This document shows, one piece after another, positions 9,243 to 38,536 of a stretch of 64,000 nt of DNA. The notes under the pieces are model-generated. The model did no database searches. It was not told the DNA's origin and worked only from the letters and a program-made list of their open reading frames with translations. The stretch comes from Thermoanaerobaculia bacterium (GTDB taxonomy: Bacteria; Acidobacteriota; Thermoanaerobaculia; Gp7-AA8). The stretch spans positions 14,161 to 78,160 of the forward strand of contig JADGNY010000004.1 of NCBI GenBank assembly GCA_017883235.1. Direction: 5' to 3'. Made by a program: the position numbers and the translations under genes. How positions within the stretch are numbered: the first letter of the stretch is position 1; the number at the start of each line of letters is the position of its first letter.

Positions 9243-13024
<3,782 letters not shown>

Positions 13025-13028
<4 letters not shown>

Positions 13029-13342
13029 TGCCCGTATCCGGTGTAGATACCGACGCCGCTGTCGCCGTCATCGTCATCGCCGCGCTGCTGCCGCGCCATC
13101 TCCTCGCGGCGCGCACGGATATCGCGGAGGGCTTGGAAGACCTGCGCCTCCTCCACCTTGAACTCCTCGTCGCTGATGTCGCCGACTTCCAGCATCATCT
13201 GCAGCTCGATGAGCCGTTCTTTCCACGGCTGATCGTTCAACAACTCCTCGTTCGCCATCGTCTGGATCTGTTTCATGATCCAGTTGAACCCCGCGATCGG
13301 GAGTTTGATAGGGATCATGAGGATGTCGTCGAGAAGGAACAT
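13025..13342 (-). CDS. Gas vesicle protein G (GvpG)-like protein.
   Basis: 105 aa. N-terminal MFLLDDILMIPIKLP and central GDISDEEFKVEEAQVFQALRDIRARREE fit the GvpG family pattern. Confidence 0.65.
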
Positions 13343-13376
13343 GGTGGTGCGGGTTACTGGGTTACTGGGTTACTGA

Positions 13377-13432
13377 GTTGCAGGGTTGCTGGGTGGGACC
13401 AAGCAACCCTGCAACTTAGCAACCCTGCAACT
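13377..13432 (-). promoter_or_regulatory. Intercistronic hairpin/repeat element between the gvpF/L-like and gvpG-like genes.
   Basis: Perfect 14-17 bp inverted repeat GTTGCAGGGTTGCT(GG)...AGCAACCCTGCAAC, with a second copy of the right arm immediately after it and three tandem GGGTTACTG units upstream. A related motif lies at 15943..15976. Confidence 0.6.
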
Positions 13433-14225
13433 ATCTCTCCGCTCTCTCCAGCTTCAGCCGGATATTCACGAAGTTATACGGCGGCCACGGGCCGGTGTAT
13501 AGAAACGACAGCTTGTTCTCGTATTTTTTCGCGATGTCGGTGATCTGATCGTCGAATGTCTTCGTCTTCTCGCGATCGACGAGGAATGCCGCGTTCAGGA
13601 TCATCTTGTCGCCGATGGGTTTGTTCGATCGTGAGGCGATCGCTGCGTCGCGCAGCGCTTCATAGATCTCGCTGACGTACGCATCCGCTTTTGCTTGTAA
13701 TGCAGACTCGACTACGCGGCCAAGCTGCATGCGCGAGAAGTAGGTGGAGGTCGAAGTATTCGACTGAATCTCTTCCTTCAGCCGTCGGATCTCCTCGTTC
13801 TCATTCTCGATTTCGCGGACGACCTGGTCCTTGTCCCAGTTCACCTTCAGGCCGAACTCGATTTTTCCGTCCATCTTCTGCAGCACGTCGGAGAGCGCGT
13901 CATAGGTTCCCTTGAGAAACTCCTTGATGTCGTTCTCGGTGCGGAAGACCGTGCCGAAGCTCATCGGCAGCACGGTGAAGTCCTTCATCACCAGCTCGTT
14001 CACGTGCTCGTGGGCGAGGGCGTTTTCACGCGTCGGATCGAAGACGATCAACGGGCAGTTGGACACGACGGCCGCGAATTCCTTGTAAGGAACGGTGTAA
14101 ACCTTGTCGCCCCGTCCACCGATACCGACAGGCCCGAAGTCGCGCGGGATGTCCGTTTTGATGATGCAGTAAACGTACTTGCCCTGCTCCGTTTCAGGCT
14201 GCTTTGCCTGTGCTTGATCTTCCAT
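13431..14225 (-). CDS. GvpL/GvpF family gas-vesicle-associated protein.
   Basis: Motifs KYVYCII, TVLPMSFGTVF and the C-terminal LYTGPWPPYNFV signature. Start set at the internal Met (MEDQAQ...) to avoid overlapping the divergent mutY start; the track ORF extends to 14267. Confidence 0.8.
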   Translation of the reverse strand: MEDQAQAKQPETEQGKYVYCIIKTDIPRDFGPVGIGGRGDKVYTVPYKEFAAVVSNCPLIVFDPTRENALAHEHVNELVMKDFTVLPMSFGTVFRTENDIKEFLKGTYDALSDVLQKMDGKIEFGLKVNWDKDQVVREIENENEEIRRLKEEIQSNTSTSTYFSRMQLGRVVESALQAKADAYVSEIYEALRDAAIASRSNKPIGDKMILNAAFLVDREKTKTFDDQITDIAKKYENKLSFLYTGPWPPYNFVNIRLKLERAER

Positions 14226-14272
14226 GTTCGGGGGCCTCGCGAGGATGGAGCAAAGCATACAATACAAGCGAA

Positions 14273-15295
<1,023 letters not shown>

Positions 15296-15317
15296 TCGCT
15301 TGTTGTTCGCGGACAGC

Positions 15318-15884
15318 ATGAGACTTCCGATCGCCGTCGTACTGCTGGCCGCGGCCACCACTCTGCACGCCCAATCCCACAACTACACCATCACCAAAGG
15401 CGGCAACAACATCGCCTCGTTTCACGCCGAAGATACCTACGACTCGTTCGACGGAAAGACGAGCGATCTTTCCGGCACGATCGTAGCCGACCCGGCCAAC
15501 CCCGCCGCCGCGAGCGTGCAGGTAACCATCAACGTCGACGCCCTCGACACCGGAGTCGGACTGCGCAACAAAGAGATGCGCGAGCGCTATCTCGAGACCA
15601 ACAAATTCGGCACCGCCACGTTCAAGTCGGTCAGCGTTACCGGTCCGACGCCGATAGCCCCCAACCAGCCTGCCGACATCAACGTTACCGGTGACATGAC
15701 CCTTCACGGAGTGACGAAGCGGATGACCATCCCGGTCCACGTCGTCCTGAGTGCTGACGGCCGCATCCACGCCACGACGACATTCAAGATCCACATGCCC
15801 GACTTCGGCATCCGCGTCCCGCACAACATCCTGGTCACGGTGAACGACGAGGTTCCGGTGAAATTGGATGTGTGGGCGAAGTAG
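15318..15884 (+). CDS. YceI family periplasmic protein.
   Basis: Signal peptide MRLPIAVVLLAAATTLHAQ, then a YceI-like lipocalin fold (..FKSVSVTG...DMTLHGVTKRMTIPVHV...). The track ORF from 15102 overlaps mutY, so an internal ATG was chosen. Confidence 0.85.
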   Translation: MRLPIAVVLLAAATTLHAQSHNYTITKGGNNIASFHAEDTYDSFDGKTSDLSGTIVADPANPAAASVQVTINVDALDTGVGLRNKEMRERYLETNKFGTATFKSVSVTGPTPIAPNQPADINVTGDMTLHGVTKRMTIPVHVVLSADGRIHATTTFKIHMPDFGIRVPHNILVTVNDEVPVKLDVWAK

Positions 15885-20860: not shown

Positions 20861-20902
20861 GCGAGGCATTCTCAGGCAGCGATGATGCACAATGCAACGG
20901 CG

Positions 20903-21970
20903 ATGACGGAGTCGTTGCAGAGTGTTGCGCCCTCCGGGCTGCAGCGGAATGTCCCCCTCGCCCCCCTGACCACGCTCGGAATCGGCGGTTCCGCGAAGTT
21001 ATTCGCGCGCGCGGAGAGCGTCGACGAGATCCGCGAAGTCATCGCCTGGGCCGAGGCCCAGCGTGAGCCGCTCTTCATCCTCGGCGGCGGCAGCAACGTC
21101 CTGATCGCCGACGAGGGCTTCGATGGAGTCGTCCTGCAGATCGACCTGCGCGGAATGACCGTTCTCACCGAGGATCCCGACGCGGTGACCGTCTACGTCG
21201 CATCCGGCGAGCGGTGGGACGACGTCGTGGCCTTTGCCGTCGACCGCGGTTGGGCGGGTATCGAATGCCTTTCCGGCATCCCCGGGCTCACCGGCGCGAC
21301 GCCGATCCAGAACGTCGGCGCCTATGGACAGGAAGTTAGCGAAACGATCGTCGGCGTGGAGGCCGTCGAGCGCGACACCGGCCGCGTGGTGACGCTGACG
21401 AACCGGGAGTGCGGTTTTGGTTACCGCCAGAGTGTGTTCAAGAACGCGGCGAAGGACTGCTACGTCGTCGCCGGCGTCACGTTCCGCCTCAAGCCGCGCG
21501 GTTCCGCGGCGATCCGCTATCCCGAGCTGCAGAAGTATCTCGACGAGCACGAGATCAACGCGAACGATCTCCAGCAGGTGCGCGGCGCCGTCATCGCCAT
21601 CCGCAAACGCAAAGGAATGGTTCTCGATCCATCCGATCCCGATACGCGTAGCGATGGATCGTTCTTCATGAACCCGGTCGTGACGCCGGCGCGGTTCGAC
21701 CAGATTCGCCGGGACGCGGAGAACGTCCCCCACTTCCCATCCGGCGATCAGATCAAGCTCTCCGCCGCGTGGCTCATCGAGCAGGCCGGTTTCCACAAAG
21801 GCTTCGTGCACGGCAATGCCGGCCTCTCGACGAAGCACACCCTGGCTGTGATCAACCGCGGCGGCGGAACGGCGAGGGAAGTGCTTGAGCTGGTCCGGAT
21901 GATTCAGGATGGAGTGCGCGAGAGGTTCGGCGTCGAGATCCAGCCGGAGCCGAACTTCATCGGGTTCTGA
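20903..21970 (+). CDS. murB: UDP-N-acetylenolpyruvoylglucosamine reductase MurB.
   Basis: FAD-binding LGIGGSAKLFA...LFILGGGSNVLIAD and the C-terminal MurB domain. Confidence 0.9.
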   Translation: MTESLQSVAPSGLQRNVPLAPLTTLGIGGSAKLFARAESVDEIREVIAWAEAQREPLFILGGGSNVLIADEGFDGVVLQIDLRGMTVLTEDPDAVTVYVASGERWDDVVAFAVDRGWAGIECLSGIPGLTGATPIQNVGAYGQEVSETIVGVEAVERDTGRVVTLTNRECGFGYRQSVFKNAAKDCYVVAGVTFRLKPRGSAAIRYPELQKYLDEHEINANDLQQVRGAVIAIRKRKGMVLDPSDPDTRSDGSFFMNPVVTPARFDQIRRDAENVPHFPSGDQIKLSAAWLIEQAGFHKGFVHGNAGLSTKHTLAVINRGGGTAREVLELVRMIQDGVRERFGVEIQPEPNFIGF

Positions 21971-21980
21971 GGCCGATAGT

Positions 21981-22532
21981 TTAATCTGGCGTTGAGTCCC
22001 GCGCGGTCTCTTGTGCGGCTGCGAATTCCTTCTGAGCCTCGGCTAACACTCTCTCGGATTCGGCTAGTTCCTTTTCGAGACGAGCCTTCTCAGTTTCGAG
22101 GCGAGCTTTGTCGATCTCTACAAAGTTGACGGTCGGAAGTACAAATTGACCGTGTTTGGACGCGCCAGTTGCTTGGCCAGCGATTCCGCGAGCAATACCG
22201 AACAAGATCGCCGGGCCGTTGATGTAGATCATCTTTCGCGATACTTCATCATTGGTACCCTCGGCGAACGTGAAGTAGCCGAGAATCTTCATGTCGACGG
22301 TGTACGGAGCGTTCTCTTCCGCGGTGTAACCGCTCGTCGCAAGTTGTATGCGCATGGTGATGCGATAGTCTCGCGTTAGGACTTCGTCCTGCTGGACGGC
22401 GAAGTCCACGTCGATCGCGCCAGACGTCTTGCGGCTAGCGTCGTACTCGGGAAGAGCGCGAAAAACTAGCTCCTCCACGTGGTACCGCTGGATATCAAGC
22501 GGCGGCGGCTGCGATGTCGTTGTTGTCGTCAT
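21981..22532 (-). CDS. SecB-like chaperone of a toxin-antitoxin-chaperone (TAC) module.
   Basis: LDIQRYHVEELVFR aligns with SecB FQIQRIYTKDISFE, and NGPAILFGIARGIAGQATGASKHGQFVLPTVNF with SecB [32 protein letters not shown]. Local GC is lower than the flanks. Confidence 0.7.
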   Translation of the reverse strand: MTTTTTSQPPPLDIQRYHVEELVFRALPEYDASRKTSGAIDVDFAVQQDEVLTRDYRITMRIQLATSGYTAEENAPYTVDMKILGYFTFAEGTNDEVSRKMIYINGPAILFGIARGIAGQATGASKHGQFVLPTVNFVEIDKARLETEKARLEKELAESERVLAEAQKEFAAAQETARDSTPD

Positions 22533-22914
22533 TTTGGGTTACGTTGCTCATCTGAGGGGCGGGCACGGAACGTGGAGTGAAAGGACGCTCCGACTTCGGG
22601 AAACGTTCGAAGAGAACCACTTGGCCAGTCGCCACCTCTTTCTCGTTCGGAAGGAGTAGCGGCGGTTCGATGCGGCATTCAAGAGCACGAGCGAGCTTCA
22701 CGAGTGTCTCTAGCGTGAAGTTGTTTTTGCCCTTGAGTAGCTTGGAGACGTACGCTTCGCTGAAACCCATGCGCTCGGCGAGAACCTTGCCGGACATGTC
22801 ACCCAACTGTTCCATTCGCAGCAGAACCGACTCCGTAAAGGCCAGCGAGAGTTCCTCGGTTTGGTACTCCAGCGTCTCCTTCATCGATTCGTAGATTTCC
22901 GCGAATGTCTTCAT
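22495..22914 (-). CDS. HigA-like XRE-family HTH antitoxin with a C-terminal chaperone-addiction extension.
   Basis: HTH (LAERMGFSEAYVSKLLKGKNNFTLETLVKLARAL) followed by an extra tail of about 45 aa absent from 2-gene HigA. The gene overlaps both neighbours. Confidence 0.75.
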   Translation of the reverse strand: MKTFAEIYESMKETLEYQTEELSLAFTESVLLRMEQLGDMSGKVLAERMGFSEAYVSKLLKGKNNFTLETLVKLARALECRIEPPLLLPNEKEVATGQVVLFERFPKSERPFTPRSVPAPQMSNVTQNDDNNDIAAAAA

Positions 22915-23333
22915 TTCAGCTTTCCTTCCTTAAGTTGTAGGTACTCGATTCGAAGTTGTTCGGCGCGGGCAATGTCGTTGTTGAACTTGCTCTCCTTCAC
23001 CTTGTCTGACGCATGGACGAAGATGAATCTCTTCGGGCCATCTTGAAAGTATAGAAACCGGGCTCCTCCGTCCGTCGTGAGCTGCCAAAGGTGATTCGAT
23101 TGCATGACTTTGTGGCAGCGTTTTTTTGACACCTCCCATGCCTTTTTTGCCGCCCGCATCTTGATGATGCCCGTGACTTGCGGATTGTTTGCTGCCTCGA
23201 TATATGCAAGCACTCCGGCAGGCTTATATCCGTAAAGAGCGTATTCCTGCCCTTGTTCGAGCAGATCCAGATGCGCTTGTCGGAACTCTTCAAATGTCAA
23301 GGGTGGAGTCAACCTATAAGTTAATCTCCCCAT
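22911..23333 (-). CDS. HigB/Gp49-like (RelE/ParE superfamily) toxin.
   Basis: C-terminal HLWQLTTDGGARFLYFQDGPKRFIFVHASDKVKE matches the RelE/Gp49 motif WELR..g..RifY...v.llhgf.KK. It is the first gene of the 3-gene operon. Confidence 0.6.
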   Translation of the reverse strand: MGRLTYRLTPPLTFEEFRQAHLDLLEQGQEYALYGYKPAGVLAYIEAANNPQVTGIIKMRAAKKAWEVSKKRCHKVMQSNHLWQLTTDGGARFLYFQDGPKRFIFVHASDKVKESKFNNDIARAEQLRIEYLQLKEGKLK

Positions 23334-23423
23334 TCCGTATACGCAAGCCCCGAGCCCAAGGTTTCTTTAGGGGAGAACCAAGAATCTTGCGCGCCTTGCG
23401 CATGTACGTCGAGGATATGGACG

Positions 23424-23444
23424 ATAACTAACGTGTTTAGTTAT
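23424..23444. promoter_or_regulatory. Palindromic operator candidate upstream of the TAC operon.
   Basis: ATAACTAA-cgtgt-TTAGTTAT (8-bp arms) lies about 90 bp upstream of the toxin start, in the AT-rich divergent promoter region shared with the YVTN gene. Confidence 0.5.
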
Positions 23445-23576
23445 AGTTACTTGCCGCTTCTCGATCTCTTCCAGCAGTTCCCGCAAGCGAGATCCGCTTG
23501 AGGCGGAGCTTGTTCAGCGCGATCGCTTTCGAGCAGCTCTCGCGAAAGACATCTGGCACTGGCATACTCACGCGTC

Positions 23577-24539
23577 ATGAAACGCCTCGCCTTCGCCCTT
23601 CTCTTCGCCGCCCTCACCGCCCGCGCTGATACGCTCCTCATCCTTAACAAATCCGATGCGACCTTGATGTTCGTCGATCCGGTGACGTTGAAGACGCTCG
23701 GTACGATACCGACGGGCGATGGGCCGCACGAGGTTGCGGTGTCGGATGATGGAAAGATCGCCGTCGTCGCGAACTATGGAACCGCGCCCAATCCGGGGAC
23801 CACGCTTTCGGTCGTCGACGTTCCGAACCGGAAGGAACTGCGGCGTGTCGCGCTTCCCGGCCTTTTGCGGCCGCATGGGATCACCGCGGTCGGATCGCGA
23901 TTCTGGTTCACGGCCGAGGGGAGCCGGGTCATCGCGCGGTACGACGCGGCGGCCGACCGCATCGACTTCGTCAGCGGAAGCGGCGCGGACACCACGCACA
24001 TGATCATCGTTCCGCGCGGTGAGAAGACGGTCTACACGGCCAATATCGGCTCGAACAGCGTCACTGTCTTCGATCTGAGCCGCGCGCCGCGCGACATTTT
24101 CATCAAGCAGATTCCGGTCGTCAAAGGGCCTGAAGGGATGGATCTCGCGCCGGACGCGTCGGAGCTGTGGGTTGCCTCGCGCGTCGCGAACGGGGGGATC
24201 GCCATCATCGATCCCAAGTCCGGGACGGTCACGCAAACCCTTCCGACGACGACGAAGGTGGCCAACCGGGTGAAGTTCACGAACGACGGCAAGTGGGTGC
24301 TCGTCTCCGATACGGACGCGAACGTGGTGCTCGTTTTCGACGCGGCAACGAAAGAGATGATCAAGTCGGTCGAGATGGCCGAGGGCCCTTCGGGGATTCT
24401 CATGGCGCCGGACGGCCAGCGCGCCTTCGTCGCCTGTGCGAACGCGAAAAAGGTGCAGATCATGGAGCTCAAATCGTTCTCGATCACGCACGAGATCGAG
24501 ACAGGGAACGTGCCGGACGGATTGGCGTACGCGCGGTGA
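23577..24539 (+). CDS. YVTN family beta-propeller repeat protein, secreted.
   Basis: Signal peptide. Repeated about 40-aa units (VYTANIGSNSVTVFD, LWVASRVANGGIAIID, VLVSDTDANVVLVFD) are typical of YVTN/40-residue repeats. Confidence 0.75.
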   Translation: MKRLAFALLFAALTARADTLLILNKSDATLMFVDPVTLKTLGTIPTGDGPHEVAVSDDGKIAVVANYGTAPNPGTTLSVVDVPNRKELRRVALPGLLRPHGITAVGSRFWFTAEGSRVIARYDAAADRIDFVSGSGADTTHMIIVPRGEKTVYTANIGSNSVTVFDLSRAPRDIFIKQIPVVKGPEGMDLAPDASELWVASRVANGGIAIIDPKSGTVTQTLPTTTKVANRVKFTNDGKWVLVSDTDANVVLVFDAATKEMIKSVEMAEGPSGILMAPDGQRAFVACANAKKVQIMELKSFSITHEIETGNVPDGLAYAR

Positions 24540-37707: not shown

Positions 37708-38536
37708 CCGCGGAGCGGCGCTATCTACGTAGCCCACAGCGTGAGCTGTGGGACTCAGATACGAACCGTTTTCAAGCCGCGGAGCGGCGACATCTCGGAG
37801 TGATCACTCCTACATATACCGCTCGTCGCACGCCAACATCATGGGCGACGTTCGAGATGTCGCCGCTCCGCGGCTGGAGATTAGCCCGCATTTCTCACAG
37901 CCTTCTTGAAGCACTTGCGACTCCCTTAATCGAGAGTCCTTCTCCCCCCGCGGTTTCTTGCGGGGGGAGAAGGGGGTTCTGACCGGGGACTTCGAGGACA
38001 TAAACCGGAGACATCGAGGACGGCTCGAACATGATGGATCCGGGGGTATTTGGATGCCTTGGAGGAACCCGATGAGCGCGAAGGAAGCATTGATGTGGGA
38101 TGTAAACAACGGGATGAGCGTGACCATGGCCGCGGAGGTTCACGGCGTGAAGCGCTCGTGCGCATACAAGTGGGTAGATCGATATCGGCGGCTTGGCTTG
38201 GCCGGACTGGAGGAGATGTCGCGAGCACCGGAGGGTTCTGACCGGGTGCCGAAGGCGGATGAGGGGGCGGTTCTCGCGCTGAAGTTGAGTGTTTTCATGA
38301 GTTTCCCACGCCCGTTCCTGAAAATAGTTCACTGCTCGGCAAGAGCCAACGCCCCCTCATCCGCCTGTCGGCACCTTCTCCCCCAGCTGAAAAGCGCTGG
38401 GGGAGAAGGCTCTCGACGAGTAACAGGGTGGCGACGATTCCATGTGAGAGTGTGAGAAATGCGGGTTAGCCCGGGTTAGCCCGATCACAACCCCACAGCT
38501 CACGCTGTGGGCTACGTAGATTGCGCCGCTCCGCGG
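37708..38536. mobile_element. Degenerate IS-derived element with 44-46 bp terminal inverted repeats and a remnant HTH ORF.
   Basis: Left end CCGCGGAGCGGCGCTATCTACGTAGCCCACAGCGTGAGCTGTGGG and right end CCCCACAGCTCACGCTGTGGGCTACGTAGATTGCGCCGCTCCGCGG are near-perfect reverse complements. Internal ORF 37958..38455 carries MSAKEALMWDVNNGMSVTMAAEVHGVKRSCAYKWVDRYRRLGLAGLEE, an IS481/IS3-like transposase N-terminal HTH. Two internal CCTTCTCCCC...GGGGAGAAGG hairpins. Confidence 0.55.

Follow-up and report, generated by a model that had tools for sequence, protein, structure and literature searches.

A very likely horizontally acquired toxin-antitoxin-chaperone module of the HigBAC type in a Thermoanaerobaculia genome

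We analyzed a 64-kb stretch of DNA (the window) from a member of the Thermoanaerobaculia (Acidobacteriota), using sequence-based evidence throughout. An earlier note on this DNA had read three overlapping genes as a tripartite toxin-antitoxin-chaperone (TAC) module. TACs are a small, well-characterized class of systems known from work on M. tuberculosis and E. coli, and have recently been shown to act as anti-phage sensors. Our results indicate that the locus is very likely a horizontally acquired TAC module of the HigBAC type. The protein families, the antitoxin tail, the conserved gene order and the empty sites found in relatives all support this reading, although three details of the original description had to be amended. 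The module appears to be of a known kind, and the locus adds a lineage-restricted example rather than a new mechanism.

The three open reading frames (ORFs) lie on the minus strand in the order toxin, antitoxin, chaperone and, as had been proposed, they overlap. The HigB/Gp49-type toxin was first called at 22911-23333 (140 aa) and is revised here to 22911-23300 (129 aa), beginning at a conserved TTG. The XRE-type helix-turn-helix (HTH) antitoxin occupies 22495-22914 (139 aa), with N-terminal helices and the HTH in residues 1-85 and a disordered tail in residues 86-139. The SecB-like TAC chaperone (SecB^TA) is encoded at 21981-22532 (183 aa) and consists of a SecB domain (residues 7-143) followed by a variable charged C-terminal helix. 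The toxin stop and the antitoxin start share 4 nt (ATGA), while the overlap between the antitoxin and chaperone genes is out of frame and 38 nt long. On one side the trio is bordered by murB (20882-21970, plus strand), and on the other by a gene for a YVTN/YncE-type beta-propeller protein (23577-24539, plus strand).

Base composition and comparison with close relatives both indicate that the trio sits on inserted DNA. The GC content from intergenic region to intergenic region (21971-23576) is 0.538, against a window mean of 0.626 (standard deviation 0.02 in 1.6-kb segments), which makes the islet the lowest-GC 1.6-kb segment within the 64 kb. GC at third codon positions (GC3) is 0.57-0.69 for the islet genes, the lowest in the window, and 0.77-0.84 in five flanking genes. 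These values bear out the earlier proposal of low local GC and horizontal acquisition. Scanning metagenomes with murB located three close relatives, L014, L015 and L016. Homology to these relatives by blastn ends at 21953-21971 and picks up again at 23557-23560, placing the insertion at 21971-23556, between the murB stop at 21970 and the YVTN start at 23577. In L014, murB is 91%, the YVTN gene 95% and the next genes 97% identical to the window, and in L015 murB and the YVTN gene are 86% and 83% identical, yet the TAC is absent from both and the gap between murB and the YVTN gene is only 47-100 nt. These comparisons indicate that the islet is a true insertion missing from close relatives, and the empty sites date the cassette as a recent acquisition. 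L016 carries a different 3.6-kb insert of lower GC at the same site (L016:6135-9503), with a single 1122-aa ORF that lacks any Pfam domain, suggesting that the spacer between murB and the YVTN gene is a recurrent insertion point. No tRNA gene and no Rfam family was found in or near the islet, so integration targeted to a tRNA gene and known RNA elements were both rejected. A 7-nt direct repeat, ATCTGGC, occurs near both islet ends (21984-21990 and 23551-23557). We rejected it as a target-site duplication, since one copy lies within the coding sequence of the chaperone and the match is probably due to chance (about 0.1).

The same toxin-antitoxin-chaperone order, with matching overlaps, was found in nine distinct loci with unrelated neighborhoods: the window itself and L001/L006, L003, L005, L007, L008, L009, L010 and L012. 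Two of the trio loci are Thermoanaerobaculia metagenome-assembled genomes, and the three protein families co-occur on the same contigs. The ratio of nonsynonymous to synonymous substitution rates (dN/dS) was 0.12-0.29 for each of the three genes when the window was compared with six loci, and 0.16-0.26 against the near-identical L008, indicating that all three are under purifying selection. Shared order in differing neighborhoods together with low dN/dS argues against a chance neighbor and against decay, and the three genes make up one tightly overlapping unit that is inherited together. Genes found beside the module in the other loci include transposases, a LexA-like repressor, a DnaB helicase and a small HTH gene that recurs together with small ORFs, indicating that the module rides larger mobile elements and that the window retains the core alone. 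Most of these loci have a gene for a 75-95-aa XRE HTH protein before the TAC (L001:5377-5892, L005:5184-5678, L009:4681-5507, L012:5177-5416 and L003:5640-5927), often with one or two small ORFs (79-91 aa) ending K-A-A-A-A-R-W-x-K and with divergent small genes farther upstream. This set seems to belong to a larger mobile or prophage-like element and is missing from the window. No member of the toxin family was found among IMG/VR viral contigs. One such contig (L094:5002-6384) carries an overlapping trio of a 118-aa ORF, a 184-aa HTH protein ending Ser-Ile-Ala-Ala and a SecB-like gene, with an antitoxin-chaperone overlap of 26 nt. Its SecB-like protein is 30% identical to the window chaperone, and its first two genes resemble MqsR/MqsA by eye only; it is probably an MqsRA-type TAC, likewise with an Ala-Ala terminus.

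The chaperone matches the SecB family PF02556 at 39.2 bits (cut-off 26) over residues 7-143, corresponding to profile positions 3-136 of 141. The alignment takes in the N-terminal strands as well as the C-terminal helix, in line with what had been described. All 19 chaperone homologues carry PF02556 and share contigs with the toxin family. In PDB sequence searches with the chaperone or its profile, the sole match was H. influenzae SecB (1fx3; residues 4-160, E 3e-3 to 4e-3), and Rv1957, the M. tuberculosis TAC chaperone, was not matched. That the general SecB model covers nearly the whole protein, and that the Joint Genome Institute (JGI) annotation of its homologues reads 'preprotein translocase subunit SecB', might suggest an ordinary two-gene HigBA pair lying beside a housekeeping export chaperone, with the antitoxin tail as an unrelated linker. 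On the evidence of the 64 kb and the related loci, we consider this extremely unlikely. The best score against the NCBIfam SecB equivalogs was 40.2 bits, far below their cut-offs of 143-181, while the PADLOC model for the chaperone of a defense system, PD-T4-9_C, is matched with E=3e-8. The gene shares the islet's low GC3, overlaps the antitoxin gene in every locus, moves with the toxin-antitoxin pair into unrelated neighborhoods and is absent, along with the pair, from the same site in close relatives. By its position on an insertion that L014 and L015 lack, and its constant place next to a toxin-antitoxin pair, the chaperone appears distinct from a core-genome housekeeping SecB.

The first gene had been described as a HigB/Gp49-like toxin, and this was the weak point of the earlier reading. 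Its own score against Gp49 (PF05973) is 19.5 bits, under the Pfam cut-off of 23.9. Across the family, however, 15 of 19 members match Gp49 at E<=0.1 (best E=1.3e-4), and all 10 scanned distant matches of the toxin-family profile pass the Gp49 cut-off themselves. Profile-profile alignment of the family with Gp49 members by hhalign gave 99.7% (E=4e-26) over 118 columns, covering residues 21-138, and the invariant toxin residues R92, K111, K113 and Y131 fall on Arg, Lys and Tyr positions that Gp49 members also keep without exception. An AlphaFold2 model of moderate confidence, with a mean predicted local distance difference test score (pLDDT) of 61, shows a strand, two helices, four strands and a long C-terminal helix, as would be expected of a RelE-type fold, the long helix being a hallmark of Gp49-like toxins (PMC9098466). 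The best PDB matches of the model in Foldseek were S. pneumoniae HigB (6af4, TM-score 0.60-0.73), V. cholerae HigB2 (5mje) and M. tuberculosis HigB1 (7awk/7nbu), with YoeB and Cami1 also among the best. Neither the toxin nor its family profile found more than chance-level matches among PDB sequences, and NCBIfam, PADLOC and PHROGs gave no match for the toxin. The family is tiny, with 18 relatives in 5.8 billion proteins and 17 representatives in 1.84 billion. With a Gp49 score under the Pfam cut-off, and with homology coming from profile-profile and fold matches, the toxin is best described as a divergent HigB/Gp49 relative and not as a Pfam-defined member.

The antitoxin contains a clear XRE-type HTH domain, scoring 39.7 bits against HTH_3 (PF01381; cut-off 23) and 37.2 bits against HTH_26, which upholds its assignment as an HTH_XRE protein. 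Its description as HigA-like holds in that an XRE antitoxin is paired with a HigB-type toxin; the HigA equivalog TIGR02607 is missed (21.7 bits vs 47.7), and a fold search with the antitoxin model returned generic XRE domains (C-proteins, DdrO, HipB). The model places helices at residues 4-12, 15-36, 42-49, 53-61 and 68-77. Residues 78-139 have no predicted secondary structure and low pLDDT, falling below 50 in residues 122-139. An extra C-terminal tail had been noted at about 45 aa, and a disordered tail is indeed present, although its length is about 55-60 residues. In an alignment of 34 antitoxin homologues the tail varies in both length and sequence (52-76 residues in 33 of the 34), and two parts of it are conserved. 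The first is a patch Q-V-V-x-F-x-R-x-P ... F-x-P-R, in which F102, R104, P106 and F112 are kept in at least 90% of the homologues while the rest of the tail is variable; we take residues 97-115 (GQVVLFERFPKSERPFTPR, encoded at 22570-22626, minus strand) as the candidate core of a chaperone-addiction (ChAD) element. The second is an acidic stretch rich in Asp and Asn followed by a terminal run of alanines, which in the window is Ala-Ala-Ala-Ala-Ala (22498-22512, minus strand), a candidate ssrA-like ClpX degron. Ala-Ala ends 31 of the 34 homologues and Ala-Ala-Ala 30 of them, and one ends Val-Ala. An aliphatic dipeptide degron of this type is found in M. tuberculosis HigA1 and in CmdA, not in every TAC. 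Both the Val-Ala of HigA1 (PMC8165232) and the Ala-Ala of CmdA (bioRxiv 10.1101/2024.02.24.581848) are experimentally shown ClpX recognition tags of TAC antitoxins, and aromatic residues are the chaperone-binding determinants of ChADs (bioRxiv 10.1101/2024.02.24.581848; PMC5105189). ChADs of different TACs have no significant similarity and are not alignable between systems (PMC5105189), so that the agreement of the tail with them is one of design and not of sequence. As judged from these features, the tail has the parts expected of a candidate chaperone-addiction element.

The out-of-frame overlap between the 3' end of the antitoxin gene and the 5' end of the chaperone gene (22495-22532, minus strand) consists of 38 nt of dual-coding sequence, and an overlap of 29-44 nt is present across eight loci. 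Within it, GCCGCCGCTTGA is invariant in the eight, including loci at about 50% protein identity. The antitoxin frame reads this sequence as Ala-Ala-Ala-stop and the chaperone frame as Pro-Pro-Leu-Asp. The arrangement leaves room for a system made of the same parts with another logic, in which the SecB-like protein is mainly a sensor/activator or a toxin holdase and the Ala-rich C-terminus is a by-product of the Pro-Pro-Leu-Asp codons: with both readings on the same nucleotides, conservation of one could drive conservation of the other, and the HigBAC of E. coli NT1F31 is independent of ClpXP (bioRxiv 10.1101/2024.02.24.581848). The third positions of the overlap speak to this point. Those of the chaperone Pro codons (G) could vary without changing the chaperone, yet they are invariant, as the antitoxin Ala codons need, and the converse applies to the antitoxin third positions. 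Since the synonymous positions of each frame are the constrained positions of the other, their invariance points to selection on both frames. The degron reading, moreover, fits two proven TACs, those of HigA1 and CmdA, and we regard the by-product explanation as very unlikely.

The toxin gene had been taken to start at the ATG at 23333, and this start is not sustained by the comparison of loci. Most toxin homologues begin 11 codons downstream, at a conserved TTG/ATG (M/L-T-F-D-E-F), and the TTG start position is common to all nine loci; we therefore rejected the 140-aa ORF. The upstream ATG is frameshifted in L012 and absent in L003, L009, L010 and L007. In the intervening region lies an imperfect palindrome, TTAACTTATAGGTT (23311-23324, minus strand), that is present in all nine loci 20-25 nt upstream of the TTG, whatever the frame, with the nucleotides TTAAC[T/G]TATAGGTT conserved in all of them. 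Loss of the upstream ATG in relatives, together with conservation of this motif irrespective of frame, suggests that the motif is non-coding, that the toxin starts at the TTG at 23300 and that the 11 extra upstream codons are probably not translated.

The TTAACTTATAGGTT motif occurs once in the window (0.03 expected by chance), and its version in L008 is a perfect AACTTATAAGTT. It overlaps a -10-like TAACTT (23318-23323, minus strand), which has a -35-like TTGCGT (23341-23346, minus strand) 17 nt upstream; CTTGC[GT]T is kept in 8 of 9 loci with a spacing of 16-17 nt. We propose TTGCGT/TAACTT as a promoter purely from its conservation, as a strict sigma-70 consensus scan returned no minus-strand promoter. 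A palindrome over the -10 region would be the arrangement classically seen in autorepressed toxin-antitoxin operators, and TTAACTTATAGGTT is the best operator candidate. A possible second promoter lies farther upstream, TCGACG-17-CAAGAT (23384-23412, minus strand), and is likewise suggested by conservation, the element reading TTGACA-17-CAAGAT in L008, L001 and L012 and being partly kept in L005. The earlier note had drawn attention to a different, perfect palindrome in the promoter region. This palindrome, ATAACTAA-cgtgt-TTAGTTAT, is present inside the inserted DNA at 23424-23444. It occurs once in the window, and the exact pattern had 0 matches in 100 shuffles, whereas some perfect palindrome (arms of 8 bp or more, loop of 12 nt or less) appeared in 5.4% of shuffled versions of the 243-nt intergenic region and about 33 distinct ones exist in the window. 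In L008 its arms are 7 bp long, the other loci (7 of 9) lack it, and we rejected it as the conserved operator of the module in favor of TTAACTTATAGGTT. Of the 8 positions in its half-site ATAACTAA, 6 agree with TTAACTTA in the conserved motif, and the palindrome may thus be an additional site peculiar to this lineage. A promoter-like TGGACG-18-TATAGT on the plus strand (23418-23447), facing the YVTN gene, also overlaps it.

We infer a mechanism modeled on the M. tuberculosis and E. coli systems. By analogy with characterized TACs, the toxin would be a Gp49/HigB-type RNase of RelE fold that cleaves mRNA on the ribosome, and the antitoxin would neutralize it through its folded N-terminal/HTH part, while an antitoxin dimer probably represses the operon at the conserved TTAACTTATAGGTT palindrome overlapping the -10 region. 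The disordered tail of about 55 residues, with its aromatic patch (ChAD) and its Ala-Ala-Ala ssrA-like ClpXP tag, would make the antitoxin unstable unless the SecB-like chaperone binds and shields it. If phage structural proteins or unfolded clients drew the chaperone off, the antitoxin would be degraded and the toxin freed, and translation would stop, with growth arrest or abortive infection as the outcome.

Several points weigh against reading the locus as a TAC module of this type. The toxin falls below the Gp49 threshold, its fold matches (TM-score 0.5-0.7) have E values of 5e-3 or higher and come from a model of moderate confidence, and a glutamate that all the compared Gp49 members share is replaced by glutamine in most of the toxin family (LWQL). 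Similarity of the antitoxin tail to any known ChAD sequence is not demonstrable. The -35 element of the upstream promoter candidate is degenerate in the window, differing from that of the near-identical L008 at two positions (TCGACG vs TTGACA, the form also found in other loci), and the trigger, phage or stress, is pure conjecture. The degenerate -35, the glutamine in place of glutamate and the lack of the upstream HTH gene and small ORFs present in most other loci could alternatively mean that the cassette was acquired as a TAC and is now a decaying or domesticated relic, inactive here through a silent promoter or an inactive toxin. This is improbable in our view. The three ORFs are intact, the low dN/dS values hold both against L008 and against the more distant loci, the proximal promoter-like and operator motifs are intact, and the change from glutamate to glutamine is family-wide and no lesion of the window copy.

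Among known systems, the trio has the same gene order as M. tuberculosis HigB1 (Rv1955)-HigA1 (Rv1956)-SecB^TA (Rv1957). The two have in common a Gp49-like toxin, for which a RelE fold and a long C-terminal helix are predicted in the window, 7awk and 7nbu being among the fold matches of the window toxin, and an antitoxin with a disordered C-terminal extension that contains aromatics and ends in an aliphatic dipeptide degron after acidic residues. In contrast to this likeness of design, the window proteins have no detectable pairwise similarity to the HigB1 or Rv1957 PDB chains. The window antitoxin ends Ala-Ala-Ala where HigA1 ends Val-Ala, the out-of-frame antitoxin-chaperone overlap of 29-44 nt is a further difference from the M. 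tuberculosis TAC, and the window host is an acidobacterium in which the cassette is a recent insertion. The prophage-borne, anti-phage HigBAC of E. coli NT1F31 (bioRxiv 10.1101/2024.02.24.581848) is similar in its HigB-type toxin, its HTH antitoxin with an aromatic ChAD and its SecB^TA, as well as in its association with mobile DNA; modules of the window type are found elsewhere near a repressor-like HTH gene, a LexA-like gene, DnaB and transposases. Its trigger is lambda gpV (bioRxiv 10.1101/2024.02.24.581848). The NT1F31 HigA, however, has a ChAD of about 100 residues with four spaced aromatics, ends Leu-Pro and is ClpXP-independent, compared with a tail of about 55 residues and an Ala-Ala end in the window. 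The E. coli anti-phage TAC CmdTAC/PD-T4-9 resembles the window module in its chaperone, through the match to PD-T4-9_C, and in an antitoxin that ends Ala-Ala, and differs in its toxin, an ADP-ribosyltransferase as opposed to a HigB/Gp49 RNase relative. Component C alone is matched in the window, and the PADLOC PD-T4-9 models gave no match for the window toxin or antitoxin. The Glov-TAC of Geobacter lovleyi, an environmental Gram-negative, belongs to the HigBA family and has a short ChAD in residues 86-115 of Glov-HigA (PMC5105189). Its position after the HTH resembles the start of the window tail at residue 86, a likeness taken from the published description. Housekeeping SecB of E. coli and H. 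influenzae (1fx3) belongs to the same fold family as the window chaperone; the latter differs in failing the equivalog cut-offs, in its linkage to a toxin-antitoxin pair on an insertion and in its charged C-terminal extension.

The locus extends TACs to the Thermoanaerobaculia, a poorly studied soil lineage, and leaves current understanding of these systems unchallenged. With a candidate ChAD, ssrA-like degron, chaperone start and conserved operator all readable from the sequence, it may provide a handy case for comparative work. It is also conceivable, although we would not expect it, that the overlap is itself a selected device, placing the degron and the chaperone N-terminus in the same twelve invariant nucleotides, and that the cassette is an Acidobacteriota anti-phage sensor triggered by a phage protein. 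If so, the instability tag and its protector would be inseparable by recombination and not independently mutable, and translation of the chaperone would be coupled to the end of antitoxin translation.

Other features of the window lie outside the islet. The second-lowest-GC stretch (11142-14267) is a gas-vesicle region, in which genes for GvpL/GvpF (13431-14267, E=3e-77) and GvpG (13025-13342) adjoin a 628-aa ORF that by eye is a double ArsA-like ATPase. A perfect palindrome with 15-bp arms (13376-13416) lies between the two Gvp genes. At 37958-38455 an ORF fragment carries transposase-type HTH domains (HTH_28, HTH_23 and a weak IS481 leucine zipper) and is flanked by nested inverted repeats (37733-37752 with 38492-38511, and 37938-37973 with 38374-38409); the whole, 37733-38511, is probably a decayed insertion sequence or miniature inverted-repeat transposable element. 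Finally, L008 has a YefM/YoeB pair between a YceI-like gene and a 917-aa gene (L008:8578-9133), where the window shows the YceI-like ORF only (15296-15867), and this pair may represent a second toxin-antitoxin presence/absence difference between close relatives.

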